Source: a virus
DNA length: 64,000 bases
Strand: one strand, 5' to 3'
IMG/VR virus record: IMGVR_UViG_3300032046_005540
Coordinates: 32,001-96,000 of that record
A model generated the notes under the pieces. The model was not told where the DNA came from. It did not search any database and saw only the letters and a list, made by a program, of their open reading frames with translations. The stretch's first letter is position 1, and every line of letters begins with the position of its first letter. A program made the translations under genes and the position numbers. This document shows, piece after piece, positions 13,192 through 43,860 of this stretch.

Positions 13192-14112
13192 CTATTCCTC
13201 TGGATAAAAATCTTCAATCTTTTGCCCTTTATCTGTAACAACTTCAACATTAGATATATTTTCATATATCTTATAAATTAATTCATCAAAATACATAACA
13301 TTATCTATCAACCCAAACCATAAGGCATCAGTTGCATCATATGTTCTTCCGTCACTTATATTTTCTAAATAATTCATTACTTTTTTATCGTTTGGTTTAC
13401 TTTGATTATATATTTCTGTATATGCTTGAATTAATTTTTTCCCCCGGCAATCAAAAATATATTGAAGAAATTCACGATATAATTTATTTATCTGATTTTG
13501 TAAAATTTCTTTTTCTTCTTCTGTTAACTTACTATGAGAAAAAAACATTGTTTTATTTTTTCCTGACTTGATCAAAATATATTTCACTCCAGACATTGAA
13601 TCAGAAACTGTTTCATCAACTCTCAAAGTAAAAACACCTATAGATCCAGTTTCTCCCGAAGGAGCTACAACTATTTTATTAGCAGTACAAGCAACCCAAT
13701 ATGCTCCTGAATATAAACCCTTTTCAGAATAAACTAAAAGACTTTTATTATATTTTCTCATTAAAACACTTATTTTATGAGTAGTTAATTTAGTCTCTAT
13801 AACATCTCCTCCATTAGACTCCGTCCATGCAATAACTCCAACACAATCTGACTTTTTAAATTCTTTCTCAATTTTATTTGCCCAATCTAAACTAACATCT
13901 CCTTCTAATTTTAAAACAACAATTTTATTTTTTTCTAAAAAAGGATTATTTAATATTAAAGGGTTGGTTGTAGATTGTGTAACAGAAACATTAGAAGTAG
14001 AATTAGCTGTAAATTGACAAATGCCCCAAAAACCTACAAAAGAAACAAAAAATACAAATAATACAATTAAATATTTTTCATTATTCGTTTTCTGTATCTT
14101 CATCTTTGTCAT
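13192..14112 (-). CDS. S49 (SppA-like) peptidase with N-terminal TM
   Basis: ESNGG, SGAYW, TGSIGV, KSGKNK, DGR...A..GLID. Confidence 0.85.
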   Translation of the reverse strand: MTKMKIQKTNNEKYLIVLFVFFVSFVGFWGICQFTANSTSNVSVTQSTTNPLILNNPFLEKNKIVVLKLEGDVSLDWANKIEKEFKKSDCVGVIAWTESNGGDVIETKLTTHKISVLMRKYNKSLLVYSEKGLYSGAYWVACTANKIVVAPSGETGSIGVFTLRVDETVSDSMSGVKYILIKSGKNKTMFFSHSKLTEEEKEILQNQINKLYREFLQYIFDCRGKKLIQAYTEIYNQSKPNDKKVMNYLENISDGRTYDATDALWFGLIDNVMYFDELIYKIYENISNVEVVTDKGQKIEDFYPEE

Positions 14113-14959
14113 CTTCTTCTTCTCCTTCTACTTCTCTTTTTTCAAACAATTTTCGAGCGTCCTCTTTTTTCTTTTTTCTCATTTTTTCGCACTTTTCAGA
14201 AGTAAATTTTGGATCATATATAAATTGAAAACACTCTTTTTCAAGCCATCCATAAATACTATGTATTGGAATAAAATATCCCATATGAGTAATACTATCT
14301 CCCCATCCTATAACATTCATTCTGCTTGGAATTCCTATAAATAAATAGTCTTCTCCTTCTCCTTTTACTTCTTCCTCTTGCTTAATTAAAAATACTCCTC
14401 CCCCACTATTACCGTATATGATCAATCCGTTACTCATCCAATAAGGATGATTTTCCATTTCATCATCTTGAGATGTAATCTCTCCACGAGTGGGAATTGG
14501 AGAATGCCCAAGACTACAACCACACATATACACAGGATCAAAAATATGAATATTCTTTACATCATCTAAATATAATTTAGCAACATTTTTAACTTGTTCG
14601 TTTGATCTTAATTTTACTAAAGCAATATCTCTATCCCTATTATAAGTCATAATATCTGCTTCAATCGCAGTTCTTCCTACATTACGACTCATATTCTGAT
14701 ATTTATAAAATTCTACATTCACTGTTTTTCTTCTTTCTTTATCAATTCTTTTTGAAAGAAGAGGATCCCACTCTTTTTTAACAGATATTGCATCTTCAAT
14801 CACATGCCAGTTTGTTAAAATATATGTTTCATATTCTTCCGATCCCTTTTTTGTAGGCTTAGAATAAACAACAGTTCCACTTCCTCCCGCTTTATCAGTT
14901 TTAACGAGAGCAGAAACATATAAAATTTCTTCATGTTTCTTTTTTATATTATTGTTCAT
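14081..14959 (-). CDS. Trypsin-like (HtrA/S1-type) serine protease
   Basis: GSGTVV, LTNWHV, DIAL, GNSGGG; paralogue of 6499..7146. Confidence 0.88.
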   Translation of the reverse strand: MNNNIKKKHEEILYVSALVKTDKAGGSGTVVYSKPTKKGSEEYETYILTNWHVIEDAISVKKEWDPLLSKRIDKERRKTVNVEFYKYQNMSRNVGRTAIEADIMTYNRDRDIALVKLRSNEQVKNVAKLYLDDVKNIHIFDPVYMCGCSLGHSPIPTRGEITSQDDEMENHPYWMSNGLIIYGNSGGGVFLIKQEEEVKGEGEDYLFIGIPSRMNVIGWGDSITHMGYFIPIHSIYGWLEKECFQFIYDPKFTSEKCEKMRKKKKEDARKLFEKREVEGEEEDDKDEDTENE

Positions 14960-22300: not shown

Positions 22301-25300
22301 GATTAAATTCTGCCTCAGTTAAAGTTCCTTCATTATATTTTTGTTCTAATTCTCTATATCGTAATTCAAGTTCATAAACTGTTTTTAATTCACTAGGAGT
22401 AATAACTGCTTCTTTTCTCATTACTAAAGTCTTACTCCCAAATGGTTTTTTCAATGTTCTAGGTTTTGTATATTCTTTCCAAACCTCATTAACTAATTGT
22501 TGCCAAAAAGGTTTTTCTTCTTTTTCTTCTATTTTCTCTTTAGGTTCTCCAAGAATAGTAGGAGTAGGAGCAAATGCTATTTCAGGTTCTTCTTCTGTAG
22601 GAATTTTTTCTTCTAACTCTTCTTCTTCAATTGTAAATTTAGGCTCTTCAACAGGAGTTGGAATTTCTTTAAGAACTTCTTTTGGCTCTTCTACTTTAAT
22701 AAGTTCTTTTTTAGGTTCTTCTATTTTTTCTTCAAGTTTTTCAACTGGAATTTCTTTTTTAATTTCTTTTTCTGGCTTTTTTATTTTCAACTCATCTTCT
22801 GCAAACGGAGCAGTAAATCCAGGTTTAAATACATTAACTAAATCGTCAGCAACATTAGTTACTTCTTTAATTTCAATATTATACAATCCTTCTTCAGCTT
22901 TTCCTTTTATAATCCCTTTACCTTTTAGAACACCTCCAGGACTTTTTCGAGTTGCACCAAAATATCTTGTAGTATCAAATTCAACTTCATCTCCAGGTTT
23001 AAATTCTGTTTGAGCAATTCTTTTTAAATTTAAACTGCTAACTTTTAAATTGCTTAATTCCTCAAAAAAAAGATCATTTGACTTTATATCTGTTATCAAA
23101 TACTCTCCATATACACCAAATTCATGAGCTGTGTTTATTACTCTATCTATTGCAATCATTTTCTCTTGAGGAGTTGTTGCTTGTTGTAATATCTGAAGCA
23201 TTTTCTTTTCATCATTTATTATATTGTGTATAATTTGTTCATCCTCTGCTCCCTTTGAAAGTTTCAAATCTTTTTCATCAAATTTAATTAACCCTTCTAT
23301 AGTATTTATAAAATCAACAATAATCTGATCCATTAATTCTTCATCATAAATACCTTTTGCTTCTTGTTTATAAAGTCTTTTTAGTTGTTGTTTAGTCGTT
23401 TGTGATTCAAATTGAGCAGATTTTTCAAACCTAAGTTTTAGTTGTTGGGGGATAATAAATTGCTCTTCTATATTCTTTCTTATAGTTTCTTTTAAACTTT
23501 TTCCATATATTAATTCAAAAGGTTTTTGAAAAGCTTTATATTTACCCTCTTGTTCTTCTTTTGATTTTTCTTTTTTAAATCTTAAATTTTCAATAAATTC
23601 AGGAGATGGAGAAAAAAGATCAGGCTGCAAAAGTTCTTCTTGTTCAATTATAACCTTCTTATGACCAATGCGTTTAGGATTAAGATAATCTACATAAAAC
23701 TCAACATTAGGGCCAAGTTCTAAAGCAACAACCAGAGCATCTAAATTATTATTATACTCCTCAATTGTTCCTGTATTCTTATACCAAAAAACCTGATTAT
23801 TATTTTCAAGACGGCCCCGCGTGATGCGGTCAAAATATACACCACTCATAGGCCATCCCAAATCTTGAAACCATCCAGCATGATCTTCTCGATCATTCCA
23901 GTTGACTACTACTTGTCCTTCATAAATAGCCCATAAAGCACGACCATTACGTTTTGTAGTTTCTTTTCTCATACTTAGTTTATTTGCTACTATACCTCTA
24001 CTAATTACTTCTTTAGCTTGTTCTACTTCTTCTACTGTTACATCTGTTTTCTTACCACTTGCTATATCCCAGATTTCATCTTCAGTGTATTTTTGGAGTA
24101 GAGCGGAAAATGGAACTTTAACCCAAGGAACTCCAATTTCTTCAAGTTTTAAATCTTTTACAAGATTTTCAACTGGTTCTTTATAAAAACTCCTATACCA
24201 TTCTCCCAAAGCTTCTCCTATTTTTTCAGATGCTAATTTTTCAGTAAATGTTCCTAATCCATATTCATCAGTAACATAAACTTTCCACTGCTCAATAAAA
24301 GAAGAAGGAAACCTTCTCATATTATCCAAAATCAAACCATTTACTAAATGTTCACTCACATCTACATTTGAGGCAATATTATATATAAAAAGTCTTATAT
24401 CTCCAAGATTAGTTATTTTGAATTTATTAAGTTTTTCTAAAATATATTCAACACTTTGTGCTTTCTTTCTCATATTTAACTTAGATGCAAATTCTTTCAA
24501 TTCTTTTAATCTTTTTTTAGCTTCATCCCTTACAAAATCTTCTTTATCTTTAACCAATTCAGTTAATGTCTCAAAAAGAGTATTTTTGTTTTTAGCAACT
24601 TCCCAACGAATTCCTGGATCTTCATCTTTTGCTAACTCCACTAAAGTTTCAGGAGGAGTTCTTGGATTACTTGCTAACCTACTTTTTTCAAGCCCAGTTA
24701 AATATTTTTCCGGAGCTTCTACAACTTCTTGACCTTTTAATTGTAAATCTTCAATTACAAACTTTTGAATATCAGAAGAAAGATAAGGTAGGAGTTGTTC
24801 AAGAGTAGTTCCTGCTTTTATTTCTAATACCTCAGCAATCCATTTTTTTGTTTCTGGAAAATCTTCTAATAATAAACCTGTATTATGTTGAATATCATTT
24901 ATATGATCAATTATAGTTATGAGTTGATTAGTATCAGAAGTATTGATAAGTTGAATTAAAGATTCAGTTATATGACCCCAAGGAAGAACCTTGCGTTTCA
25001 TCCATTTGTTCCATTTTCCCTCATTCCATATTCGACTAACTTGTTCAAGAGGCAAATTTTTCAATTCTCCAAGATTCTTTATATTAAATTCTTTTTTCCA
25101 TTTATTCCAATCTAATAAACAAACACTGACTCCTCTACACGCATATACCAACGCTTTATATATACTTTTTGTAATTAAAGGAGCATATTCTTCTTTTACT
25201 TGTTGAACAATCATATCTTTATATTGAGAAGCATAAGGATTTTGTTCTAAATATTGATCCGAAAGGAGACTAACACCATAAAAATCATAAAATAGTTGTT

Positions 25301-27128: not shown

Positions 27129-27353
27129 TTAGAATCTAGGTATAAAAACAACATCTAAAAGTTCCACATCACTCATCATTGCAAGAAAAAAAGATCTAGT
27201 TCCATCCTTGCTAATGTCAAAAGCAAAAAAGAGACCTCGTTCTACGGAATAAGGTTCCACAGTCCTCAAACTAGTATCTCCTTTTTGAGTAGTATACATA
27301 AATCTAATCAAACGATGGCTTTCAATTCCAGTATAAATATCTTCAAGAGCCAT
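27129..27353 (-). CDS. Stand-alone WYL domain protein
   Basis: [22 protein letters not shown]; start placed at MALED after GGAG. Confidence 0.75.
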
Positions 27354-28248
27354 TTGCAAACTCCTCCAATTTATAAATAAGAACATCTCTCAAAAATTCA
27401 TCATAAAAATCAAAGTACCAAATACAAAAACATTCAACTCCAACACTTTTATATTCATTTATTATTCTTTCGTGGTGATCCCACCAAAGTTCTTTCGTAA
27501 TAATAGGATCATGAAAATATCCTCCTAAAACCTCAACAACTTTTTTAGTTTTCTTAAAAGGTTCAACAATAAAATCTGGATTTCTATTTTTATATTTACC
27601 ATTTTTAATAGGAATCCAAAATTTTCCGTTACCTACGTATTTTACATTCTTAGGAACTACCTTCATTACTTCTTGTTCAAGTTTACTAGGACCTATACTA
27701 GCTTTTTCTTTACCTTTTTTCATTTTTCTTAACTCTTCTTCAGAGGGTTTTCTACCTCTTAAAGCTTTACTAATTTTCTCTTTTGTATTATCAAAACAAG
27801 GATGTCCTTTTAAAGCATTACTTATTTTTCTTTTATGTTCTTCAGAAAGAGGCCCTCTTTTTTTACCTTTATTTGATTTACTTATTTTCTGTTTTGTTTC
27901 TTCAGAACGGTATGTTCCATAAAGAGGATTTTTTTCTCCTTTTTTTGATTCCCCTATTTTTCTTTTTGTTTCTTCAGAACGAGGTATTCCTTTTTTAGAT
28001 TCACTAATTCTTTTAACACCTTCACTAATTTCTTTTGTTAAATTTTTATTCCAAGCTTTTCTCCCTTTAAGAGACTCGCTAATAGTTCTTAACTTATATC
28101 CATTTCTTTTAATAATATTTCTAATAGTCACATCACTACAATTCCATTTTTTAGCTAAAACTATACTATTTAATTTCTCTTCAGAAAAATATTCCTTACA
28201 AATTTGTAATTCCTGCTCTTTTGTAAATATTTCCAAAGTTATCACCAA
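27343..28248 (-). mobile_element. Free-standing homing-type endonuclease (HTH + NUMOD3 repeats + PD-(D/E)xK)
   Basis: [18 protein letters not shown] repeats; NPDFI..VVEV.G.YFH. Confidence 0.8.
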
Positions 28249-31200
28249 TTTCTCCGATCAAAAGACCTCTTTCCTCCAACTCTGTCCTTCAGATTTTTAC
28301 CCTTTTTCATATTCCAAAGAGATCCTCCTTTTGTTGGAGGGTGACTTGTTCCTAAAGATATAGGCATTCCCCCTAGACTTTTATGTAATTCTCGAATTAC
28401 TTTACTACTCATATCCTTCCTTAAATTTAGTCTATGTATCAAATTAGCTGACACTACACAAAAATCATCAGAAGTAACTGGGCCACTTGTTGGTGCAGCG
28501 TAATAGACAGTTCCGCCACTTATTATTTTTTGTAAATATTTCAACTCAAGCTTTAATTTTCCAGGCCAATTTTCTAAAGGGCTTTCATCTATCCCATAAC
28601 AAAAAACATTGTTTTGATTCAACTGCTCTAAAAAGGTTCCGAACATCTCACTTTTGTAACTATTAGTAAAGGTTGTTTCAAATGCAGGTAATTTCATTTT
28701 TCTTAATTTATTAACACTATCTATACTGGACCATTGATCATAACAAATTTCTATAACCTGCTTTCCCATCACACTTAAATTTGCAATCAATTTCAATAAA
28801 AATTCCATCACTACATCTGGATCAATCCTTTCCATAACAATTTTACCATCTTCCAACAATTTTACTGTAGGTTCAAATCCTTTTAAACCATCAATCCAAT
28901 ATCTTTCTTGAGGCCTATCTTCTCTATGACCCCAAGCAATAGCATAAGTGTCAGATTTGCTTGCGGGGTCTACTGTTATAATATACAACTGACCCGGGCG
29001 GCCTTTTAACAAAATTGGAGCAGTTGGAATAACCATATTATCTATTTTTTCTGGATTCAAAAATGTTGAAGAAGGTTCTCCAAAATGTGCTCCATATTCC
29101 ATTGCTGCAGAAACTGGGTCTTTTCTAAAATCATCATCAAAACTTTTTCTTTCATATTTAGGATTTGCTTCCCAAGTTGCAAGTTGTAACATTAAATATT
29201 TTTGATTTTTATAAACTTCTTCAGTTTTAGTTTGTTCTTTTCCTCCTGCAGAACAATACAAAGAATAAAACTCTCCAGCTTTTTCAGATGGAGAACTAAT
29301 TGCTATAATTAAACCATCATCTCCAAAATCTTTAACCGAAGGAGTTAAAGCAACCCACATTGCGTGGTCTGTTTGAGGTGCATCTATAAATTCTAAAGTT
29401 CTTTTTCTATAACTTGATCTGGAAAAATGTGCCATTTCATCAAAGGACAAACAATTATGACTTATAAAACCATTTGAAGTAAAATTATGAGTTTTCGGAA
29501 CAGTTACATCATACATTAACTGGCGAGATGAATTTTCTTTTTTAACTATTTTATCCCAAATACCTTTTTCTACAGTAATAACAAACCTTTTTGGTTTTGA
29601 ATGTTTTCTTTTTTGTAATTTTTTTACAAGAAAATCTAATCGTAAAGTATTATATGTATGCAATGTTCCAATTTCTTTAGCATATAACAATATATCATTA
29701 CTATGTACAGAAATTGCATAAATAACATTAGACCTTTTTATAGTTCTTTTCGAAGAAATAATTCCAAAATTTAATAAAAGTATTTGTAACTGATGAGCGA
29801 GTTTTTCTGAAACAGTGTGCATAGAAAGACATCCCCCACTATTTTTATCTCCAGGTTCAACACACCCATCACCATCAAAATATGCTTTTAAAAACTCTTT
29901 CACTATTTCCTTTGGAGACTGTAAAATACACCATGGAATTTCCTTTTTATAACTATTCACATAATCTATTCCAATAAATTCCAAAAATTTTCTTACTTTT
30001 TTACTACAAATAATAATACTAAAACATTTTTTAGTTGCTTTAAATTTAGAAATAGATGTTGACTTTTCATAAATATATTTAACATCAGGAAAACATTTTT
30101 TTATACAATATTTTATATCATTTAAAATTTCTTTATTAGTATTAGAAATGCTAATTTGTGTTTTCTCTGTTACATTTCCTTCTGCAACTAAATAACCTAA
30201 TAATCTAGCAAGTTCCTTTGACATCTTTTTAGGAACTTTTACATCTTTATATCTATTACATTTTCTCCAAAAATTAAAGGTATATAAAGGTGTTTTTGCA
30301 TATCTTTCTTTGTACTGATGTAAAGTTATTTTATGAGTATGTAAATGATCTTCATTTATAAGTTTAAAAAATTTTCCACAAATTTCACATTTTATTTCTT
30401 TTTCTTTATTACCTTTATATTCGTCCCAATAATTATAATTAAATTCAAAATTCTTCAAATTTCCAAAATAATTTTGTCCCTTTTGAATATAAACCCAATC
30501 ACCTTCTTTTAAACTATTTAATTCTTTATATTCAATATTATTTTCCGAAGACATTGTTAATATTTTATGATCTCTCGTTCCAACTAAATCAAATCCAAAT
30601 TTTGTAGTTATTTTTATGCTTTCTTTTTCACCAGAACACATTACATGAGATGTTATAGCCTTCCCAGTATTACCATACAATTGTATTTTTTTATTTAAAA
30701 CAGTTTCCTCATTACACTGAACAACATCTCTTATAGGAATTATTCCCTTCTCAGTAAATATCAAAGTATCTCCAGAAACACATTGAATTGCTTTTCCTCT
30801 TTTAGTTGCTGCAGATGTAGTAACGGATTCAATACAAATTGAACCCCGTAAAAGGTTCTTTTTCATTGAACCTTTTGGTTTCCCTTCATTAAACTTTTTT
30901 ATTTGAGAATTTAAAAACAAATCATAAGGAGAAAACACCCTCAATTCAGTTTCATTATCTTTTTCAAAGTCTATATACTTTTGAAAAAATTCAAGTTTTT
31001 TAATATTATCTTTTATAAGATTAAAGGTTTCTTTTGCTTGTTCTCCATCCGAAGCACAATTAAGAATATGAATTGGATGTCTTTCTCTTATATTATAATA
31101 TTTTTGAGGATTACCTTTACAAACAAGTTTATATGCTTCATATGAAGCAATCCAAGAAACTACAGAACTTTTTGATCCTCTCCTACCTATAACTAAAATT

Positions 31201-31478
31201 AAAACTTCAATTACTTGTTTTGCATTTCTATGTTCTAAATCTAAATCAATATTCCATTCAGTTTTTAGAATATCAATTATTTTCTGTTCTTCTTCAGTTA
31301 TAGGATACTTTTCCCACAATCCATATAACAACTTTAATACTAAACTTTGAAAAGGGAAAGGTCTTTCACCTAACCATTTATGAGAAGTAATAAAAGTTAA
31401 AGCATCTACTGGTTCAATCGGTGCGGTTAGTAAAACTCTTTCTTCGTATTTTTTATCTACTAAATCTTTGAAGGTCAT
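28242..31478 (-). CDS. terL: Terminase large subunit with LAGLIDADG intein
   Basis: PFPFQ, Walker A-like GRRGSKS, Walker B LSFDE, ISSP coupling motif, nuclease VDPA...SDD. Confidence 0.88.
29454..30782 (-). mobile_element. Intein (443 aa) with LAGLIDADG endonuclease and internal Zn-finger insert
   Basis: N-terminal CVSGDTL; C-terminal YDVTV..HNF..NGFISHN followed by C(+1); LLGYLVAEG and [10 protein letters not shown]; CEICG..H..H insert. Confidence 0.93.
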
Positions 31479-32948: not shown

Positions 32949-33776
32949 TTACCTCACAATCTTACTACAAATTATACTTTTTACTTTTTCTGTATTATTT
33001 AAAATATCACTTTCCCAAAATCTTAAAAGAATGAAGTTGTTTTCTTTTACTAATTTTTCATTTTTAATATCTTTTTGATATTGTTTTAATTGTTTTTCAC
33101 TTAACTTTATAAACTTTTTTGTATTTCCATGATAATAATCACCATCTACTTCAATTAAAAAATTTGTATTTAAAATATGAAAGTCAAAAAGATGATTTCC
33201 TAATCTAAACTGATGTTCAAAAGGAATGTTTAATTCATTTAGAATTTCTTTCATTTTAAGTTCAGGTTTAGTATCTTTAAAAGGTCCAGGATTATTTTGA
33301 ATCCGAAGTAAAACTCTTTCTCTATCTTTTCTTTTGAATTCTTCAGAATGATGGTGATTATAAAAAGGATTTTTATCCCCTTTTCTAAGGTCACTCAATT
33401 TTTTCCTTTCTTTTGGATCTTTCCAACGTTGTATTACTTTTTCTCGAATTTTTTCTCGAACCTCTGGTCTTTTAGCTGGGTTATTTTCACCCTTAAATTT
33501 TTCTCTTAATTTTGCAAGAATAGTTGGATTTTTAAGGGCTTCTTTTATTTTCTTCCTTACTTCAGGTCTTTTTGCAGGATTATTTTCTCCTATAATTCCT
33601 TTACATGCCTTACTATGAGTTCTTAAAGAAAAACCTCTCCTTATAATAGCATTTCTAATTGCTGTATCACTACAATTCCATTTCCTTGCTAATACTAAAG
33701 TGCTTGGCTCTTCTTTAGAAAAATATTCATCACAAATTTGTTGTTCTTTTTCGTTTGTAAATAATTTATTAATCAT
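32949..33776 (-). mobile_element. Free-standing endonuclease (HTH + NUMOD3 + Vsr/DUF559-like)
   Basis: GENNPAKRPEVR repeats; TKPE...DF..IEVDGDYYH..LRFWE. Confidence 0.85.
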
Positions 33777-33790
33777 TTTTATCCTAAATT

Positions 33791-36700
33791 TTATAAAGAA
33801 AGTTCTAATTGTTCTCCTTCTGCAAGAAGACTACTTATAGACTTAATGTAACTCCATAAATTTCTCCCTAGCTCTTTTATGGAATCAAACACATCTGCCT
33901 TTTTAATAGTTCCTTCTCTTTTTGGAAATACAGTTAAAAGTCTTTGTTTTACATCTTTATCTAACGACGCAGCTCCACGTTCAGCTTTTTCTAAATAAGC
34001 TCTAGCTTCTTCTCCAAATTTCTCTAAAAGTTTCTCAACTCTCCATTTATCATCAGGTTTAAATTTTTTAGTTTTCATAGATGTATCCAACCATACAAAA
34101 AACTCCCCTACGTCAACTAATTTTTTTTCTGACTCACTTAACAAAGTAGCCAATTTCTCAATCGCTTGGCTCATTTCTTCAGCTTCTTTAACTGATTTAT
34201 GTTCCTCTTGAACCTTTCTAATTTCTTCTTCTACTTTTTGTCGAGCAGAATTTACAATTGCTTTTATTTCACCTAATCTTTGTTCGTGATCCTTAATTTC
34301 GTGGAAAGTCTCTTGCATTTTTGGAGTTGCCACAACAGCCTCTTCTACTTCTAACTCTGGTTTGTGTGGTTTTGTTTTTAAGGTCTTATACTCTACTTTC
34401 GGTTTTTCTTCAGTTTCTTCTTCTTGAGCAAATCTCAACGATTTCTTTTTAGAATCATACTTTTCTAAATAATTTTCTGTATTTTCAACCGCAGGCAAAA
34501 CAACTTCTTCTAATTCTTCTGCATGTTCTGCTTCATCATCAGCCATATCTTTTAAAGCTTTTTCTGCTTTAGGAGAATCAACTTCTTTTGCCATTTGATC
34601 ATACTTCTCTTCGCCTTCTGTTTCGTCCTTAATATCTTCTTTAACATCTTTTTCAGTAAGAGCTGCTTTTCGAATTTTTTGAATTATTTCATTAACTGAT
34701 TTACCTTGAGATATTTTTCTTTTAGCAGTTTTTTCTAAATCAGCTAAAGAAAATACATTTAATCTTCCATCATCTAAAATAACATTATATCCAGTGCCTA
34801 CAGTTCCTGATCTAAATTCATAATTAGGAGTAATTTCAGAAACTATTCCAGATAACCCACCAAGAGTTCTTACTTGATCTCCTTCACTTATAATTTTTTC
34901 TGCTGTTTTCTTTGAAGACCTTTTTTCATATAATCTAACATTTTCATCGTAAAAAGCTCCCTCATGTCCATCATCAAATCTTACCATATATTTATTCTGA
35001 ATTCCAGTCCAATCTACATCAAAAATTTCTCCTATCTTACCATAATCAACATGATCTTCTTCTACTACTTTTACTATATCTCCTATACTATAAGCAGCTG
35101 CTGTTTTCTTTTTTGAAGCATGAACTACAGGATAATGTTGATTTTTAAGTTTCTTGTCAAGAATTTCTTCTAACTCTTTTCTAGTCATTCTTGAAACTTC
35201 TGACATTACTTTTGTTAAATCAAAATCTGGAGGAAACTGACCTGCTCTTGCATAATCATTTATTAAAGTTCTTAATCTTGAAATAGGAATTTGTTTTCCG
35301 GTTTCATCTGTTTCATGATATCCAGTAGGTTCTGCTGTTTTCTTTATTGAAGATTTCTTACCTTTCATATGTTTAAACATTTCTACTTGTTGTAATCTTT
35401 CTTCTGCTTTCTTTCTTGAAGGGTAACAACCCATACTTCTACCAGATTCTGCTATTACACAAAATTCATTTCCTCTTTCAACTATTTTTGCTTCTTTAAT
35501 TGAAGCTTCTTTTGTTTCTTCCTCTTCAAACTCTTCATCCTCATCTTCTTCAATTAATTCTATTTGATTACCATTTACATACCAACCTCTTCCTTGCTCA
35601 TCTCCAACCCAACCTCTTCTTCCATCCCACTGAGATAAAGTAAAAACTTCTCCTGGTTTATCTTCATAAGCAGGTTTTAATCGAACTTGATCTCCATTTT
35701 GAAACTCATAATCTATTCCATCAGCAGTCTTTACAGGCTTTACAGAAGTTCCACCTCTAAACATTTTTTGAATTGCTCTTTCTTCTTCTGGAAGAATTCC
35801 TTGATTTGATTTTTCATAAGGAACACTAAAATCAGCATCAACTTCAGTTTGTTTTGCAACACTATAATCAGGATCTGATTCAGTAAAAGGAAATAAAGTT
35901 TTTTCATCTCTTAAACTTCTTTTAATTAAATTTTTAACTTTTTCTGCAAGCGTTGTAGTAGGAATTGCAGGAACAGCACCTGGAGTAGTTACAACTCCTG
36001 GAGTAGCTTGAATATTTAGATCCATATTAGGAATTGGAGCAGTTTTAACTCCTGTTTCATCTGTTAATACAGAAGCATCTCCTATAGTAGAATCAATTGT
36101 ATATATTTTTCCTTGATATTCAATTTGCTGACCAGGAGTAGGAATACCAGCTGCTGTTTTCTTAGAAGCTAATGCTAATAAATCTAACCTTTCTAATTTA
36201 TCAATAGAATTTTGATAAGCATCAAAAGCTTCTTGACGATTCATTCCAAATTCTTGTTCTAAATTTTTTACCATTTCTTCTAAAGTATAACCTCTTCTTA
36301 CTCCTATTCTAACTACATTATCTACACTATTTAATTCTTCTGCTGTTTTTTTAGAAGCAACCACTTCTCTAAATCTTGTAAAATCTCTTTCCTTAAAATG
36401 AATTTCAGGAGCACTAATTTTAGGTTCTGTAGCAGTAAATAATTTACCTGATAAGAAATCTGCAACTGCTTCTTTTGTAAAAGGAATTTCCCTTCCGTCT
36501 AAAGTAGAAAAAGTTTCAGGCAATACAACTTTACCAGCAGGAGTAATTCCAGCAGTAGCTAAAACTCTAAATCTTAAATCAAGATTATCGACTGCTTCTA
36601 TAGAAAATTCTGCTTCCCGAATGTTTTGTGGTCCTCCTTCTTTTACGCTACTTCTTGTGATTCCTCGTTGAAATCGAAGCTGAGGATTAAAGAAACCAAA

Positions 36701-37159
36701 TTTTTGGCAATATTTACCTAACTCGTGACAAATTTTTTCTAAGAGGGCTCTGTCAACCCAACTTTGGGGCGTGTAATTTGGCGTCACCCCTTGGTTCGGA
36801 TACACAGCAATTAAATTGGCTGCCCTATTAATTTTTGAATTTTGTTTTGTAGAAATTTTAATCAGCCGATCCACAATAAGAACTTTTCCACACTTAGGGC
36901 AAGAAATATAAGAATCTCCCCCCCGAGCTGATTCTACAATTTGTTTTTGCAAAAGATCCGCACTAAAAGAACTATGGCACCCAGAACATACATAAGAATA
37001 TGGTACTTGTTTTACAGATGATTTTGCATATTTACTAATTAAATTTTTTGTCTTTTCTGACAAAGGGTCCTTCTTTGTAGCTTCCTTTTTTATTTTTCTC
37101 TTATCAATCCAATCAGGAAGCTTGTTTTTATTTCCACCTTGTTTTTTTGGGACTAACAT
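33791..37159 (-). CDS. About 1120-aa multi-module protein; candidate polyprotein
   Basis: Zn ribbon, several KOW/SH3 modules and a ferritin-like ExxH module separated by ASKKTA-type linkers; ATG at 37159 after AGGAGG. Confidence 0.85.
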   Translation of the reverse strand: MLVPKKQGGNKNKLPDWIDKRKIKKEATKKDPLSEKTKNLISKYAKSSVKQVPYSYVCSGCHSSFSADLLQKQIVESARGGDSYISCPKCGKVLIVDRLIKISTKQNSKINRAANLIAVYPNQGVTPNYTPQSWVDRALLEKICHELGKYCQKFGFFNPQLRFQRGITRSSVKEGGPQNIREAEFSIEAVDNLDLRFRVLATAGITPAGKVVLPETFSTLDGREIPFTKEAVADFLSGKLFTATEPKISAPEIHFKERDFTRFREVVASKKTAEELNSVDNVVRIGVRRGYTLEEMVKNLEQEFGMNRQEAFDAYQNSIDKLERLDLLALASKKTAAGIPTPGQQIEYQGKIYTIDSTIGDASVLTDETGVKTAPIPNMDLNIQATPGVVTTPGAVPAIPTTTLAEKVKNLIKRSLRDEKTLFPFTESDPDYSVAKQTEVDADFSVPYEKSNQGILPEEERAIQKMFRGGTSVKPVKTADGIDYEFQNGDQVRLKPAYEDKPGEVFTLSQWDGRRGWVGDEQGRGWYVNGNQIELIEEDEDEEFEEEETKEASIKEAKIVERGNEFCVIAESGRSMGCYPSRKKAEERLQQVEMFKHMKGKKSSIKKTAEPTGYHETDETGKQIPISRLRTLINDYARAGQFPPDFDLTKVMSEVSRMTRKELEEILDKKLKNQHYPVVHASKKKTAAAYSIGDIVKVVEEDHVDYGKIGEIFDVDWTGIQNKYMVRFDDGHEGAFYDENVRLYEKRSSKKTAEKIISEGDQVRTLGGLSGIVSEITPNYEFRSGTVGTGYNVILDDGRLNVFSLADLEKTAKRKISQGKSVNEIIQKIRKAALTEKDVKEDIKDETEGEEKYDQMAKEVDSPKAEKALKDMADDEAEHAEELEEVVLPAVENTENYLEKYDSKKKSLRFAQEEETEEKPKVEYKTLKTKPHKPELEVEEAVVATPKMQETFHEIKDHEQRLGEIKAIVNSARQKVEEEIRKVQEEHKSVKEAEEMSQAIEKLATLLSESEKKLVDVGEFFVWLDTSMKTKKFKPDDKWRVEKLLEKFGEEARAYLEKAERGAASLDKDVKQRLLTVFPKREGTIKKADVFDSIKELGRNLWSYIKSISSLLAEGEQLELSL

Positions 37160-37169
37160 TGGCAACCTC

Positions 37170-38207
37170 CTATATATTATTTAAATTATTTTCAATTTCT
37201 TTCAAATCTTTTATAACAATTAACTTTAAATCTTTATATCCATATTCATCTAACAACTTTCTTCTCTGTAAATAATATTGTTCATCAGTTAATTTAAAAT
37301 CAAAAGAATGAAATTCTACAACAATTTTATCATTTACTAAAAAATCAAATCGCCCTCTAAAATTATGATCAATTTTAAAACCTAATTTCTTTAATTCTAT
37401 ATAACAATCTCTTTCTTGTATTGAAGGAAAAAATTCGTTATCATAATAACAATGATTCCCATGACCATTTTTTAAAGATTGTTGAATAGCTTTTGGAGTA
37501 CTGTTTGCTTTACTAATTTTTTCTCTTATTTTAGGATCTTTCATTATTTTCTGTAATTGAATACTTTTCCTTTTTCTTGCTTCTTTAGTTTGTGCCACTT
37601 CAAACTTTGTTCTCAAGGAAAACCCACAACGTTTAATAGCATCTCGAATAACACAAGGACTACAATTCCATTTTTTACTCAAAGTAAAAGCACTTGGTTT
37701 ATCTTCAGAAAAATATTCATTACAAATTTGCTGTTCTTTTTCTTTTGTAAAAGTCTTCTTTGTATCACTCATTTTCTTTTTTGTTTCTTCAGAACGAGGA
37801 ATACCTATTTTTTTATCTCTTATTTTTTTCTTAGATGCATCAGAAAGATGAGTACCATACATAGGGCTATTCTCCCCTTGCAAAGAGACACTAATTTTTC
37901 TTTTATGTTCTTCAGATTTTGGTTTACCTTTTAATTTTTCACTTATTTTCTTATTTCTTTCCGGTGAAAAAATTTTAGCAACTCTTTCGTCGGTCTCTTT
38001 AGTAAGATTTTTATTCCAAGCTTTTTTACCTTTACAAGATTCACTATGAGTTCTTAAAGAAAAACCATTTCTTTTAATAACATTGCTAATTGTTAAATGA
38101 TTACAACTCCATTTCTTTGCTAAAATAATAGTAGTTGGTTTTTCTTTTGAAAAATACTCATCACAAATTACTTTTTCTTGAATATCTGTGAATCTTCTTT
38201 TCGTCAT
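37170..38207 (-). mobile_element. Free-standing endonuclease (two HTH modules + NUMOD3 + PD-(D/E)xK-like)
   Basis: Duplicated EYFS.KP..L.KKW.C module; QERDCY..GRFDF..IVVEFH. Confidence 0.78.
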
Positions 38208-38218
38208 ATATTTTCCTT

Positions 38219-41056
38219 TTAGAACACCACGGGCGTTGCGGGCTCTGATTTTTTCTCTGCACTACCTTCTCCAACTTCTTCTTCTTCTACTTCCTCTGTT
38301 TCAAGTTCCCCTTCAGTTCCTTCAGTTGTTGGAGCTTCTGCACCAATTGGTTCTTCTTCTTTTTCTATTTTTTCTCCTTCTTCACCCTCAAAACTTACGT
38401 GCACGTCCTTAGTTTTAGGATTTACAATTACATGAATTTCTTCTACTTCTTCTTCAGTTTCTGATTCTTCTTGCTCTTCAGGCTTCTCAGGAAGACGTGG
38501 GAACTTTGTTTCTTTAACGCTCCAGTTCATAGGAGTCAATTTATCCGATCCAGCACCGCCACCACCCCTCAATGCTTCCATTCCATCTGCTTTCTTCTTT
38601 ATACTTGTTTCCTTTCTTAATTCTTCAGGAAACAAAGAATTAAAAATTTGATGAAATTCTTCTTCGGTTACAATATAATTTTCACTATCAAGCCAATCTC
38701 TTAAACTTCGATCTATATCTTTAGAAGGAGTTGTTTCATCAATTCTATATGTTTCAAGGAAATCTTCTTTTATATGCCCAACTACTTTCTCTATAGGAAT
38801 TTCAACTGCTTCTTTTTTTATTGAAGCAATTGAAGATAATTTTCCTAAATGTTTTTCAACATAATTAATAAGATCCAATAATTTTCCAGAACGATATGTT
38901 TTTTCTCTTTCTGGAGACTTTTCTATTTTATCTGACTCTTCTTTATAATCAGATTGAAGACCATCTAATACTTCAAGAAGGTCGTCAAAATCATCCCAAT
39001 TTTCATGAATAAGTTTTAACCATTCTCTTGCAGGTTTAGAAGCTGTTTTCTTTTTCGAAGCTCTCCTTACTTGTTCTATATAACCACATCCATGACATTC
39101 CCACTGTAGTTCTCCTTCTGCTATATGACTTGCTCCTAAAGTCATTTCGGAACCACATTTCGGACACGTTTCAGTTTCAACTTTATAAGATTGTTTTGAA
39201 GCTTCTTTTTCAATTTGAATACCTTCATGCTGCAAAAAATTCAACACTAAAGCTTTATATTCAGGAGAATCATAAAGCCAATAACCACGAATACCTTTAA
39301 ATGCTTTTGCATAAGCATCTTTTGGTGAAAGACCAGACTGTACCAAAGATTTCACAGTATCTATAAATCTTTGGATTTCACTACTAAGAGGTAATTGTTT
39401 TGTTTGTTCTATTGCTTGGTTACACTGGTTTTCACCTTCACTTTGCAATTCTTGTTTTTTCACTATATCACTTGCCTGAAACTCAAAGGACTGCCAAATA
39501 TCAGAAGTCTCTTCTTCACCAGGTTCTTGAACATAAACTGCAAAATAACACATACCTCCATGCGTTATACTTACTTGAGTTAAAACCACTTTGTAACCAT
39601 TATCCAAAACCTTTTCTTTATGAACAAATTGACCTCTCTTTATCGATGCTTCTTTTTCAGTTTCTTCTTCAGGCTCTAAATCTACTTCTTCTAACTCTTC
39701 AGGCTCTTCTTTTGAAGGTTCTTTAGCAGGAGATGTTGGAGGACTTTGTAAAGATTTAAAATAATGCCTTAAATCTTTTGGATCATCCACCCACAAAGTT
39801 TGAACAACATTTTGTGCTTTTTTAATAGAAGCTGTTTCAGTCATCTGAAGTTTTTGGATCCTTCTTTCTACTAAATTAATCAAATCTTTAACTTCTTCCA
39901 TTTTATCTTGATAAAAACTTGGGTTAGCGTTATATTCAGATATATCAGTCTCCATTGATCTTAATCTACTCTGGAGTCTTTCCAAAAGATGATTAAGATC
40001 CTCTAATGAACCGGAACTATAGAAGTATTCATCTCTTTCACTTTCTAGAAAGGCAATCTTCGTTCTTTTCTCAGCAGCAACCTTATTTATTCTATTTTCA
40101 TTTGCAATCTTTTCTAATTGCCTTTTAGAATAAGAAGCACCACACTTACATTTAAACGTTCCTAATTTTTTCAACATTTGTAAAGACATTTTTGCATTAC
40201 ATATAGGACATAAAGAAACAGGCCTAATTATATTATCTTCAAACCAAGTTGAAGGTAGATCTTTAAAACTAACTTTAGAACGGTCTGGAACTGCAGCAAC
40301 TACTTCTCCTATTTTACCATTATATTTTTCATAAAGATTTCCATGAGGAACATCTATTTGAACAATAGTTCCAGGCGAATGGGAGGTTTTGGAGGAGGTT
40401 TTAGAAATTTTTAATCCATATTGATGCCCTGGAGGCGAAGATTTTCTTTCATATTCCTTAACTACTTCATTAAAAACTTTTTTCAACTTATCAAGATTAA
40501 GAGTTGAATACAAATCATTAACACTTTCAACATAAATATTTTTTTCTTCAACTTCTCGGTCATCAATAGAATTTTCCAAATCTTCTGCTTCATAAACTAC
40601 CACCCAAGAAGAAGGTTTCTCTTCAAAACCTTGTAAAGAAGATATAACAACATATCCATTTGGTAATTCTTTTCGATCAATAAAAACACCAAAAACCTCA
40701 GGGTCTTCAAATTCTTCTCCTGGAAGTTCTGCTGTTTTCTTAGAAGCCTTCACCTGCCTCACGATTCTATCATTATCTCCATCAGTATATACTACTATCC
40801 AAGCCTCATCCTCTCCGTTTGCATTTTTAATTGTTTCCTTCTTCCAAATCGATCCAGCGTCAGGCTCAATTGTTCTCCGAAAAATATCCCACGAAATTTT
40901 TTCAAAACCTTTTTCAGTAAAAGGCACTGCTCCACGTTTTCGTAAATCAGAAACTCTTTTCTGATATTTAATATCAGCAACAGCTTTCCTCATAAAATCA
41001 GGAATTTCATTCCCAAATAATCGACGAACTTTGTTTAAATAACTTTTGTTTACCAT
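38219..41056 (-). CDS. 945-aa multi-module protein; candidate polyprotein
   Basis: KOW, Zn ribbons and duplicated modules separated by ASKKTA/ASIKKxA linkers. Confidence 0.85.
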   Translation of the reverse strand: MVNKSYLNKVRRLFGNEIPDFMRKAVADIKYQKRVSDLRKRGAVPFTEKGFEKISWDIFRRTIEPDAGSIWKKETIKNANGEDEAWIVVYTDGDNDRIVRQVKASKKTAELPGEEFEDPEVFGVFIDRKELPNGYVVISSLQGFEEKPSSWVVVYEAEDLENSIDDREVEEKNIYVESVNDLYSTLNLDKLKKVFNEVVKEYERKSSPPGHQYGLKISKTSSKTSHSPGTIVQIDVPHGNLYEKYNGKIGEVVAAVPDRSKVSFKDLPSTWFEDNIIRPVSLCPICNAKMSLQMLKKLGTFKCKCGASYSKRQLEKIANENRINKVAAEKRTKIAFLESERDEYFYSSGSLEDLNHLLERLQSRLRSMETDISEYNANPSFYQDKMEEVKDLINLVERRIQKLQMTETASIKKAQNVVQTLWVDDPKDLRHYFKSLQSPPTSPAKEPSKEEPEELEEVDLEPEEETEKEASIKRGQFVHKEKVLDNGYKVVLTQVSITHGGMCYFAVYVQEPGEEETSDIWQSFEFQASDIVKKQELQSEGENQCNQAIEQTKQLPLSSEIQRFIDTVKSLVQSGLSPKDAYAKAFKGIRGYWLYDSPEYKALVLNFLQHEGIQIEKEASKQSYKVETETCPKCGSEMTLGASHIAEGELQWECHGCGYIEQVRRASKKKTASKPAREWLKLIHENWDDFDDLLEVLDGLQSDYKEESDKIEKSPEREKTYRSGKLLDLINYVEKHLGKLSSIASIKKEAVEIPIEKVVGHIKEDFLETYRIDETTPSKDIDRSLRDWLDSENYIVTEEEFHQIFNSLFPEELRKETSIKKKADGMEALRGGGGAGSDKLTPMNWSVKETKFPRLPEKPEEQEESETEEEVEEIHVIVNPKTKDVHVSFEGEEGEKIEKEEEPIGAEAPTTEGTEGELETEEVEEEEVGEGSAEKKSEPATPVVF

Positions 41057-41068
41057 ATTAATCTCTCC

Positions 41069-41977
41069 TTATAAAAAATTTATTAAAAACTTACTAAAAA
41101 TTATCCTTTTCACTTTTTCTGTATTATTCATAATATCGTTTTGCCAAAATCTTAATAAAACAAAATTATTAGTTTTTGCAAGTCTTGTATTTTGAGCATC
41201 TTTTAGTTTTTGTATTAATTGGTTTTCAGTTAAATCGTCAAATATTTCAGGATTACCATGATAGTAGTCTCCGTCAACTTCTATAAGAATATTGGTGTTA
41301 GAAATATGAAAATCGTAAAGATGATTTCCTAATCTAAATTGATGTTCAAAAGAAATAGTTAATTCATTAAGAATCTCTTTCATTTTAATCTCAGGTTTAG
41401 TATTTTTCCAAGGCCCAAGATTATATTGGTATCGTTGTAAAGCTTTTTCACTTATTTTTCTTTTTGTTTCTTCCGAATATGTGTTTCCATAATTAGGAGC
41501 TTCTTCACCAAACCTATGAACTCCGAACATTGGGTTATTTTCACCTTCATGGTTTTTTCTATATTCAGGATTTTTCCAACGTTCTTCAGCAGCTTTACTC
41601 ATTTTTTCTTTTGTTTCCTCAGAACGTTTTTGCCCGGTTAAAGAATCACTAATTTTTTGTTTTGTTTCTTCAGATTTTAGTTTACCTAAATTTGGACCTG
41701 TTTTTCCTAGCCAATAATAATGTTTACCTTTAGCAGAAATACTCATTTTTTCTTTAGTAGTATCTGAACGAACCTTTCCTGACCAATATCCAAGTTTCCC
41801 ATCAAGAGATTCTGCATGAGTTCTTAAAGAAAACCCATTTCTTTTTATAATATTACAAATAGTCATACTATCACAATTCCATTTTTTGCCTAAAAATACA
41901 ACACCTGGTTTCTTTTCTGAAAAATAATCGTTACAAATTTCAATTTCTTGTTCTTTTGTAAACTTTCTTTTACTCAT
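41069..41977 (-). mobile_element. Free-standing endonuclease (HTH + NUMOD3 + Vsr/DUF559-like)
   Basis: Nuclease domain very similar to 32949..33776; start moved to MSKRKFT, matching its paralogues. Confidence 0.85.
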
Positions 41978-42107
41978 TATTTTCACTCTCTGAGCATTTT
42001 TTACAAATTTTTTTCCCATTTTTACCACTGTAAAGAACATTTGTTTTCTTTTTACAAATTTCACAAATTAAAGGAACAGATATTCCTTTTGCTTTCTTTT
42101 TTAGCAT
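41970..42107 (-). CDS. 45-aa Zn-finger protein (not in ORF track) starting MLKKKA
   Basis: SD AGGAGGT; CEIC...CKKC. Confidence 0.65.
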   Translation of the reverse strand: MLKKKAKGISVPLICEICKKKTNVLYSGKNGKKICKKCSESENNE

Positions 42108-42196: not shown

Positions 42197-42460
42197 CTAT
42201 TCTTCTTTATCGGCAACAACCTCAAGGCCTAGGAGAACATCAGAAGAAATTTGCAAGTACAAACATAGTTTCTTAAAAGTAGATAATGAAGGAATCTTTT
42301 GAAGACTTTCATATTCTCTTAAAAGATTTGGATCTTTATTCAGTATTTTCGCCATTTGAGCTTTAGTATGGTAAGGTGATCTCATTTGCATTCGGCGTTC
42401 TTTTAATAGTTCATTATCAAAAATTTTCCAACCGTCAAATTTATCTACAATTTTTTCCAT
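42197..42460 (-). CDS. XRE/Cro HTH regulator
   Basis: LKERR..TKAQMAK....EYE....PS....KLC..L..S.D.LLG. Confidence 0.8.
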   Translation of the reverse strand: MEKIVDKFDGWKIFDNELLKERRMQMRSPYHTKAQMAKILNKDPNLLREYESLQKIPSLSTFKKLCLYLQISSDVLLGLEVVADKEE

Positions 42461-43860
42461 TATTCAATCACTCCAGAATCTTCTTTGTAAGTATGTTTAT
42501 CAGCAGTAGAAATCTCAGGTTCTAAACACTCGTCTCTATTTTCTTCTCTTTGTCTAAATCCAGGAGTACCTTTCTTTTCTAACTTACTGAATTGTTTCAA
42601 AGTTTCAAAGGCTAAATTAAAATGACTTTGTTTCAAAATTACTTTATCATTTTCACCTAAAGAATTATCCTCAATAGCAAAACTCGAAGCAGTTATAATC
42701 AATTCTCTTAACAAAGCTCCAGTAAAACCTTTAGTCAAAACACTTAATTCTTTCCAATCAATATCTTCAGTTTTTAAATCTTTGCAAAAAACTTTAAGCA
42801 TTTTGAAACGTTCCTTATCTTCGGGCAAAGGTATTTTTATTACTCTATCAAATCTTCCAGGACGCTCTTTAATTGCTTTATCAAGCATTTCAGGGTAGTT
42901 AGTAGTCATTATAATCAACACTCCATTGTTTTCAACAAGACCATCTGCTTTATTAAGAAACTCTCCTAAAACTATTGAATTGTTGCCATATTCCCTAGAA
43001 GTTCCATAAAAATCAACATCTTCTAAAAACAAAATAGTAGGGGCAAGTTCATCTGCTAATTCAAATAACATATCAATGTGTGAAGTACGATCACTTTGAA
43101 AAAATTTAGGAGTAACCCAAACAAAAGTCACTCCTTCTGTTGTTGAAACTAAAACTTTTCCTAAAAGAGTTTTTCCAACTCCAGGATCGCCACATAACAA
43201 AATTCCTCTTTTTGCAGGAAGACCATTTTTTCGATATATTTCAAAATTTGCTAAATATCTTTCAATATTTCTTTTAATTTCTTCTTCTATATTCTTTGAT
43301 AAAATTATATCATCCCAAGTATAAACTCTTTTTAATTTTAAAAACCTTCCAAAAGGAGTGATCTTAGCCCCTTTTAAAAAATTCAAATATTTAACTTTAT
43401 CTTCTAAATCAGAAATAATTTGAGAGGCTTCTTCCTTATTTTCATTAGAAGAATAAACATAAACATAACCTGCATTACAACTTCTTTCAAAATCAATATT
43501 AACTACAAATTTTTTATTATTTTTAGTCAAAAAATAATTACCAACAGTAACTACATTAGCAGTTTCATCTTCACTTATTTCAACTTGTATTCTTTCAACT
43601 TCCATATCATAACCATCATAATCATAATTAAGTAATTGACTAACTACAAAATTCTTTTCTTTTAACAACTCTGGAAGGGAATAACAAACAATAGGCATTT
43701 TAAATTGAGAATATGTTTGTTTTGTAGAAAAAAGATTATCTAATTTAATTTCCAAAAAATCAATTACAAATTTGTTATGAGATTTGTAACGATGAAACGC
43801 CTCTTTCATAACTTTCTCAAACTCTTCTAAAGAAGCGTCTGTAAACTTTTTATTTTCCAT
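42460..43860 (-). CDS. AAA+ ATPase
   Basis: GDPGVGKT, LFLEDVD, TTN, RPGRFDR. Confidence 0.9.
   Translation of the reverse strand: MENKKFTDASLEEFEKVMKEAFHRYKSHNKFVIDFLEIKLDNLFSTKQTYSQFKMPIVCYSLPELLKEKNFVVSQLLNYDYDGYDMEVERIQVEISEDETANVVTVGNYFLTKNNKKFVVNIDFERSCNAGYVYVYSSNENKEEASQIISDLEDKVKYLNFLKGAKITPFGRFLKLKRVYTWDDIILSKNIEEEIKRNIERYLANFEIYRKNGLPAKRGILLCGDPGVGKTLLGKVLVSTTEGVTFVWVTPKFFQSDRTSHIDMLFELADELAPTILFLEDVDFYGTSREYGNNSIVLGEFLNKADGLVENNGVLIIMTTNYPEMLDKAIKERPGRFDRVIKIPLPEDKERFKMLKVFCKDLKTEDIDWKELSVLTKGFTGALLRELIITASSFAIEDNSLGENDKVILKQSHFNLAFETLKQFSKLEKKGTPGFRQREENRDECLEPEISTADKHTYKEDSGVIE

Follow-up and report, generated by a model that had tools for sequence, protein, structure and literature searches.

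ORF1124 of a phage G-related virus, a modular protein with repeated K-x-A linkers and a candidate protease-processed polyprotein

Introduction

A stretch of 64,000 nucleotides (nt) from the record of an uncultured phage in IMG/VR, IMGVR_UViG_3300032046_005540, referred to as the window, contains an open reading frame (ORF), ORF1124, in which a short basic peptide ending in alanine recurs between small modules. The window covers bases 32001-96000 of the record, which is 168,267 base pairs long and estimated to be 90% complete; positions below are those of the window unless the genome is named. What is such a peptide for: does it only space or join the modules, or is the protein cut there? We propose that ORF1124 and its partner ORF945 would be modular polyproteins of a phage G-related lineage that are processed by a protease, and that ORF1124 is probably head-associated cargo. 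Because the cleavage, the enzyme, and the packaging are all matters that we infer, we hold this reading with middling confidence, doubt and acceptance being about balanced.

Start codon and linker peptides of ORF1124

The frame is open for 1124 codons (33791-37165, minus strand). Its listed TTG start at 37165 falls within the spacer after a ribosome-binding site: AGGAGG sits 6 nt before an ATG at 37159. As, additionally, the N-terminus reads MLVPKK or MLIPKK in all homologues, the ATG is almost certainly the true start, and the product has 1122 amino acids (aa).

33791..37159, minus strand: ORF1124 gene, 1122-aa product from the ATG at 37159

All of the linker and linker-like peptides that the original prediction had reported along this product (11/11) are present at the places given for them.

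36341-36361, minus strand: linker VASKKTA (linker 1)
36152-36172, minus strand: linker LASKKTA (linker 2)
35723-35740, minus strand: linker KPVKTA
35489-35509, minus strand: linker EASIKEA
35333-35353, minus strand: linker SSIKKTA
35099-35122, minus strand: linker HASKKKTA
34901-34918, minus strand: linker SSKKTA
34724-34741, minus strand: linker DLEKTA
34661-34675, minus strand: linker-like IRKAA
34427-34447, minus strand: linker KKSLRFA
33896-33913, minus strand: linker-like GTIKKA

The motif is not distributed at random. Its strict form, [AS][SI]I?K{1,3}[TE]A, occurs six times in ORF1124, compared with a mean of 0.026 and a maximum of 2 in 20,000 residue shuffles, and KKTA occurs five times, compared with 0.05 by shuffling. 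A slightly wider pattern, searched in the six frames of the 168-kb genome, was found in four ORFs only: seven copies are in ORF1124, three in ORF945, and two are stray single ones. IRKAA and GTIKKA lie within conserved core sequence and are weaker candidate sites.

The original prediction had described these linkers as a variant upstream half joined to a K-x-A end shared with the giant ORF of the same phage, and this description is accurate. Two linker dialects could be distinguished: L-[SN]-[LM]-R-K-[KT]-A in the giant ORF, polyprotein B, orf117, and orf297, and [AS]-S-(I)-K-K-(T)-A in ORF1124 and ORF945. The split between the two is kept in a relative at ~52% identity. The same processing logic would apply to ORF1124 as to the giant ORF, as had been suggested, and we take the linker peptide to be most likely a cutting site of a phage protease, judging from the sequences at hand.

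16395-26186: giant ORF, 3263 aa
31490-31843, minus strand: orf117, directly upstream of the terminase gene

In the product of orf117, a 27-residue N-terminal leader ending in RLSMRKRA, in the dialect of the giant ORF, precedes a small acidic domain. This product is a candidate small head protein with a leader.

The codons of the linkers are uneven. Linker threonine is encoded by ACA in 7/7 cases (36% background), the first linker alanine by GCT in 8/8 cases (50% background), and the lysine pairs mostly by AAG AAA, though AAG makes up 17% of lysine codons; AAG AAA breaks runs of A. This pattern suggests an avoidance of long A-runs and some shared ancestry of the joints. One could also imagine that the A-rich linker codons (e.g., TCA AAA AAG AAA) are sites of ribosomal or transcriptional slippage, which would yield nested truncated products with no proteolysis at all, and two linkers do hold a zero-frame A AAA AAG or G AAA AAG heptamer. 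However, most linkers have no canonical heptamer, and their A-runs do not exceed 7 bases. Moreover, AAG, which is enriched at linkers relative to genes, interrupts these runs in the recurring AAG AAA, and the flanking Ser, Thr, and Ala, which slippage does not need, are kept as amino acids. We consider slippage extremely improbable. Within and between phages, the synonymous codons of the linkers vary while the peptide is kept, which indicates that selection acts on the peptide.

Conserved cores and variable slots

Alignment of ten metagenomic homologues of 1122-1412 aa (residue numbers as in P0002) revealed five conserved cores, namely residues 1-273, 337-479, 610-687, ~820-905, and 912-1122, separated by four regions that cannot be aligned and that are each bounded by linkers. 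All insertions and deletions among the ten proteins are located at or between linkers. Thus, beyond what the original prediction had described, about half of ORF1124 consists of cassettes, and the remainder is a conserved five-part core.

37079..37159, minus strand: N-terminal leader, residues 1-27, ending in IKKEA, with an invariant Trp17
36341..37078, minus strand: core 1, residues 28-273, ending in VASKKTA, with a zinc ribbon (48-103) and an NTF2/cystatin-like alpha+beta domain (133-238)
36152..36340, minus strand: variable slot 1, holding a helical cassette of 63 aa that ends in LASKKTA
35723..36151, minus strand: core 2, residues 337-479, an SH3-like unit (PGQQIEY) and a conserved tail, ending in KPVKTA
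35333..35722, minus strand: variable slot 2 with two cassettes, an NGDQVRL unit with an acidic tail (ending in EASIKEA) and a KIVERGNEFCV beta3-alpha unit (ending in SSIKKTA)
35099..35332, minus strand: core 3, residues 610-687, EPTGYHETD...HYPVVH, ending in HASKKKTA
34724..35098, minus strand: variable slot 3 with two small barrels, one DUF1918-like (residues 688-753, ending in SSKKTA) and one Tudor/KOW-like (residues 754-812, ending in DLEKTA)
34427..34723, minus strand: core 4, residues 813-911, a short basic segment with IRKAA and then a rubrerythrin-like hairpin (DEAEH), ending in KKSLRFA
33794..34426, minus strand: core 5, residues 912-1122, a conserved long-helix C-terminal domain with the candidate site GTIKKA 34 residues from its end

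Slot 4 is in the core 4 region, where relatives insert cassettes. At least 90% of distant homologues have Pro15 in the leader, which may serve as a targeting peptide and would hold the first K-x-A site. The core parts follow one another as leader, zinc ribbon and NTF2-like domain, SH3-like unit, helical part, rubrerythrin-like hairpin, and long-helix C-terminal domain. Cassettes of 45-80 aa are gained, lost, and exchanged at the four slots, and every unit has at its end [AS]-S-(I)-K-K-(T)-A, the local dialect of a lineage-wide K-x-A signal.

An AlphaFold2 model of the whole chain had a mean predicted local distance difference test score (pLDDT) of 49.9, with 57% of residues below 50. Its confident islands (residues 48-101, 135-240, 340-380, 557-595, 756-811, and 835-890) are bounded by linkers. 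Each linker lies within a 10-residue block with a mean pLDDT of 25-39, which is a local minimum, and at five boundaries a confident domain begins or ends within ~10 residues of a linker. Together with the insertions, deletions, and cassette exchange at the linkers, these minima support the earlier suggestion that the linkers are boundaries and do not lie inside domains.

As to the modules themselves, the units named in the original prediction were confirmed in part. The PGQQIEY unit was modeled as a three-strand beta unit (pLDDT ~72), and the KIVERGNEFCV unit as a beta3-alpha fold (pLDDT 60-78) that matches phrog_2859, a family of unknown function. The unit proposed to be ferritin-like corresponds to Rubrerythrin PF02915 (E 4.7e-6, 27.5 bits, cut-off 22.8), but as a single helical hairpin only. 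The IGDIVKV barrel matched DUF1918 with E 6e-5, its 23.0 bits falling below the cut-off of 24, and the NGDQVRL unit was not confirmed (pLDDT 25-36). On the whole of ORF1124, Pfam and PHROGs gave weak hits only; the whole-protein and per-module scans yielded the rubrerythrin-like hairpin, DUF1918, the zinc ribbon, and families of unknown function, and no conflict domains (anti-restriction, DNA-modification, nuclease, or peptidase). A tblastn search with ORF1124 and ORF945 found nothing among 50,697 phage records.

Cassette exchange between ORF1124 and ORF945

A third member of the group, which the original prediction had not described, is ORF945, whose linkers KASKKTA, TASIKKA, RASKKKTA, IASIKKEA, and TSIKKKA are in the dialect of ORF1124. 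ORF945 and its five homologues have the same design of a core with slots.

38219..41056, minus strand: ORF945, partner polyprotein candidate, 945 aa, with the same linker dialect as ORF1124

Direct BLAST between the two gene families revealed at least six cassette families common to both, at different positions and with linkers at their edges. The KIVE[KR]GNEFCV cassette, for example, is in ORF1124 of this phage and in the ORF945 homologue of other phages, and residues 750-809 of P0007 correspond to residues 701-760 of P0015 with 80% identity. Cassettes thus move between ORF1124 and ORF945 at the linkers. A search for a free-standing KIVERGNEFCV cassette was uninformative, with a single hit, a 198-aa protein from a short contig. 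No cassette of ORF1124 or ORF945 of this phage matched the giant ORF or polyprotein B, and exchange across the two pools is rare, with one weak match among relatives, from P0007 to polyprotein B.

Two further features of the ORF945 family were observed. One is an invariant LRGGGG just after the last linker, which resembles ubiquitin-type cleavage sites. The other is a long acidic tail, whose end is a conserved PV[NV]F, or SPIQF in a distant relative.

Core 1 as a separate gene

At 50% identity, the family of core 1 comprises 76 clusters, with proteins of 254-1326 aa. The domain stands at or close to the N-terminus of nearly all listed proteins, with matches starting at residue 1-33. In the distant relative L009, the gene order (ORF945-like gene, core 1, terminase) is kept, but core 1 has a gene of its own, which encodes 264 aa and stops a few residues away from the linker 1 position; further free-standing members end at the same place. 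The existence of core 1 on its own, in a gene that stops at the linker position, argues that the separated pieces are functional. Downstream of it in L009 there are a homing-endonuclease gene and then a 608-aa gene whose product has, by eye, an SH3-like part and a long-helix C-terminal part containing KELKTAP that resemble those in the remainder of ORF1124. BLAST of this 608-aa product against ORF1124 gave no match.

The dialects right after core 1 in distant members include MKKTA and SSKKTA. P0053 carries SSLKKKAD or close variants at seven joints, and the ORF945-like protein of L009 has the linker SQKTA. An ESM Atlas search with core 1 returned nothing above chance, and the core 1 profile matched PDB sequences through the zinc ribbon only. 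A match of one family member to GpA_ATPase (the Pfam terminase family) could not be traced to a terminase fusion and was dropped.

The exchange of cassettes at linkers would also be expected if the linkers were never cut, as if they were only flexible spacers, conserved as joints for this exchange or to keep the modules independent, and the protein stayed one chain like beads on a string. The predicted lack of structure at the linkers and the codon bias for ACA and GCT described above are in line with such an explanation, which we regard as unlikely. However, a joint or spacer does not explain why the peptide is kept while its synonymous codons differ among copies and phages. A spacer needs neither a fixed six-residue sequence over 50% divergence nor a K-x-A core throughout the lineage, and the occurrence of core 1 as a gene of its own that stops where the linker would be is better explained if the pieces are released from each other.

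K-x-A motifs in the capsid protein and the head protease

A further argument against uncut spacers is that the K-x-A core is also present at the N-termini of capsid proteins, where no shuffling takes place. The capsid protein of this phage is 40% identical to gp27 of Bacillus phage G. Among 120 of its relatives, ~105 have full-length N-termini, and most of these carry conserved K-x-A motifs ahead of the HK97 fold, in the forms M[RK]KxAS, PPGFxKTAP, GFGVEKTAD, or GFxLxK[ET]A; that of this phage is PPGFRKEA|P. The leaders of ORF945 (IPDFMRKA) and of the capsid protein (PPGFRKEA) are comparable to that of ORF1124. The N-terminus of the portal (genome 18996-22196, minus strand), VPEFKPIRGA|S, resembles the leaders of these three proteins (P-x-aromatic ... 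[KR]-x-A), and the portal may be trimmed as well.

Similarly, the K-x-A core is present in the protein that would be the cutting enzyme.

genome 6833-11167, minus strand: protease-scaffold protein, 1444 aa

The N-terminal ~300 aa of this protein match phrog_18299, 'head maturation protease' (E 1e-10), and the domain aligns to phage G gp19 (E 6e-27) and to the 'capsid maturation protease' of Gordonia phage Stormageddon; it had no match among PDB sequences. Both this domain and phage G gp19 end in LEK[IV]A|S (LEKIA|S here), and the repeats of the scaffold part are preceded by KTA or RKTA. The K-x-A signal is an old, lineage-wide one, kept at the level of the peptide. In two related viral records the capsid protein and the head protease were not found, which is uninformative, as these records are only 33% and 55% complete.

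One cassette of ORF945 (residues 669-751; 38804-39052, minus strand) is homologous to a repeat of the protease-scaffold protein, and likewise a cassette of the homologue P0012. The repeat is a helical module of ~75 aa, GEWLxLIxGAWNxFxDLxxIL..., which occurs at residues 544-621 and 1054-1121 of the protease-scaffold protein and once in ORF945. In both copies examined, one from each protein, the GEWL-type module is preceded by KTA, in ORF945 after RASKKKTA. This module may be a scaffold-docking or capsid-targeting unit.

In the mechanism that we propose, the whole chain would be made as one protein and would enter the assembling head, possibly by means of its N-terminal leader or, in the case of ORF945, of the scaffold-like module. 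The head-maturation protease, as the N-terminal domain of the 1444-aa protein, would then cut after each linker alanine (P1 = Ala). The predicted yield is ~10-13 fragments of 21-246 aa, which may have some role after injection.

Several observations weigh against this reading. N-terminal sequencing (PMC5646251, Table 1) showed that the capsid protein of phage G, 282 aa long, loses 27 N-terminal residues to give a mature form of 255 aa. When mapped to the deposited sequence, the cut is GRVALA|QAM, with Ala at P1 but with no Lys at P3 and outside a K-x-A register, which makes the exact register of the proposed cuts tentative. Bare K-x-A is expected ~7 times per 1100 aa by chance at this composition, so that the matches in the capsid protein and the protease rest on their conservation and not on rarity; the N-terminal leader pattern is mildly enriched genome-wide (6 found, ~3 expected). 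The disorder of the linkers discriminates weakly because the model of the whole protein is poor. Moreover, ORF1124 is ~55 kb from the capsid and protease module, adjoining the terminase gene, has no detectable similarity to known head proteins, and none of its modules matches scaffold, portal, or capsid proteins. Finally, the phage encodes a second conserved protease.

The choice of protease and the two dialects

This second protease has a trypsin fold and is encoded next to an S49 peptidase.

14081..14959, minus strand: trypsin-fold serine protease, cytoplasmic, with an acidic tail
13192-14112, minus strand: S49 (SppA-like) peptidase with an N-terminal membrane helix

If either enzyme, rather than the head protease, cut the linkers, processing would not depend on capsid assembly, and the fragments would not have to be virion cargo. 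The membrane helix and the SppA-like character of the S49 enzyme speak against it. The trypsin-fold protease has a Trypsin_2 domain (E 1e-12) and no visible signal peptide or membrane helix in its sequence. Its gene lies two genes after that of the giant polyprotein, and both related records have it, too, downstream of this polyprotein, with 56-70% identity. Six positions before its catalytic Ser (GNSGG) there is Leu, not Asp, and in S1 proteases Leu at this position fits cutting after small or hydrophobic residues such as Ala. The two conserved dialects and the two conserved proteases could also form pairs. In contrast, the conserved K-x-A core stands where head proteases classically act, at the N-termini of capsid proteins and where the head-protease domain ends, and we know of no phage in which a trypsin-fold enzyme processes such a polyprotein. 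We judge cutting by the trypsin-fold or S49 enzyme to be unlikely, though the former is a serious alternative, and retain the head-maturation protease as the preferred enzyme.

Such pairing would turn the dialects into an addressing code, in which two cargo pools, the [AS]-S-(I)-K-K-T-A chains (ORF945 and ORF1124) and the L-S-[LM]-R-K-K-A chains (the giant ORF and polyprotein B), are cut by different proteases (the head and the trypsin-fold one) or at different times or places. This idea is quite improbable in our estimate. If it were true, one phage would keep two cargo pools that are processed apart and seldom exchange cassettes, and the released proteins of each pool could be read directly from sequence.

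Comparison with known systems

Substrates of head proteases are known from other phages: the internal proteins IPI-III and Alt of T4, cut by gp21, and head or ejection proteins of phiKZ and SPN3US, cut by gp175 and gp245 (PMC10052503, PMC7411985, PMC5694885). As in these phages, the phage studied here has a dedicated head protease and a short candidate cleavage motif that recurs in its capsid protein, its protease-scaffold protein, and further proteins, and several small proteins are predicted to be freed inside the head. Unlike in them, the motif is a basic K-x-A, probably with Ala at P1, in place of [ILV]-x-E or [SAG]-x-E, and each chain has many units, with a conserved core and swappable slots, whereas their proteins are mostly cut once or a few times. 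The protease is of the phage G gp19 branch and not of that of T4 gp21. The gene of ORF1124 stands beside the terminase gene, outside the head module, and its processing is a prediction.

Within the same phage, ORF1124 resembles the giant ORF and polyprotein B in the K-x-A core, in the design of cassettes on linkers, and in the location of insertions and deletions at linkers among relatives. It differs from them in the upstream half of the linker, in a cassette pool that seldom overlaps with theirs, and in that about half of it is conserved core, which bears a widely distributed N-terminal domain.

The polyvalent proteins of phages and conjugative elements are shuffled multidomain proteins proposed to travel with DNA and to act early in the host (Iyer et al. 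2017, PMC5512222). ORF1124 is like them in having several independently shuffled domains in one polypeptide, with its four slots and the cassette families shared with ORF945. Unlike them, it has no recognized conflict domains detected, consists of tiny barrels and helical units with a fixed linker peptide at the boundaries, and lacks a peptidase domain of its own.

Another parallel lies in capsid maturation. Herpesvirus assemblin and the capsid proteases of the HK97 type cleave scaffold or capsid maturation sites after Ala or Lys. The proposed P1 Ala, the specificity for the non-prime side, and a protease that frees itself at such a site (LEKIA|S) would be similar to these, but the substrates here are multi-cassette chains.

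What appears to be new is a second, stably kept linker dialect, the traffic of cassettes between adjacent genes, the core-plus-slots design, and the site upstream of the terminase gene. To these is added a widespread N-terminal domain family in which one and the same joint is found either as a linker or as the end of a gene, depending on the phage. If the linkers are cut sites, about a dozen small mature proteins could be read from the sequence of ORF1124, and likewise many proteins in uncultured phage G-like phages. A basic K-x-A specificity would also be defined for a branch of head proteases that has no curated family. The core-plus-slots design itself would allow an essential protein to be kept while its inter-domain joints dock fast-evolving small modules, and it is plausible that these swappable modules are host-manipulating or anti-defense cargo.

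Gene neighborhood

The DNA has a G+C content of ~29%, and nearly all of its genes are on the minus strand. In transcription order, the genes of the region are the AAA+ ATPase, a homing endonuclease, ORF945, a homing endonuclease, ORF1124, a homing endonuclease, a 310-aa ORF, a 117-aa ORF, the intein-bearing large terminase, a homing endonuclease, and the giant ORF, followed 3' by an exonuclease, the trypsin-fold protease, and the S49 peptidase. The head module, located outside the window, contains a portal with an intein, polyprotein B, a sigma factor, the 1444-aa protease-scaffold fusion, and the capsid protein.

42460-43860, minus strand: AAA+ ATPase (PF00004 with lid)
41069-42064, minus strand: homing endonuclease, NUMOD3/DUF559
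37170-38207, minus strand: homing endonuclease, NUMOD3/DUF559
32949-33776, minus strand: homing endonuclease, NUMOD3/DUF559
28242-31478: large terminase with intein
27343-28248, minus strand: homing endonuclease, NUMOD3/DUF559

The order of AAA ATPase, ORF945, ORF1124, terminase, and giant polyprotein is kept in relatives. The four homing-endonuclease genes stand between polyprotein and terminase genes and are absent at the same positions in the relative L004. With the inteins in the terminase and the portal, selfish elements crowd the late region.

The AAA+ ATPase gene, a short way upstream of the ORF945/ORF1124 pair, is kept there in close relatives, and the distant relative L009 has a Cpn60 chaperonin gene (3288-4913) near its place. 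The ATPase or chaperonin may be a folding or unfolding helper for long chains. In the relative that encodes P0011, a PrkA/DUF444/SpoVR trio, a bacterial kinase module associated with stress and sporulation, is inserted directly after the ORF1124 homologue.

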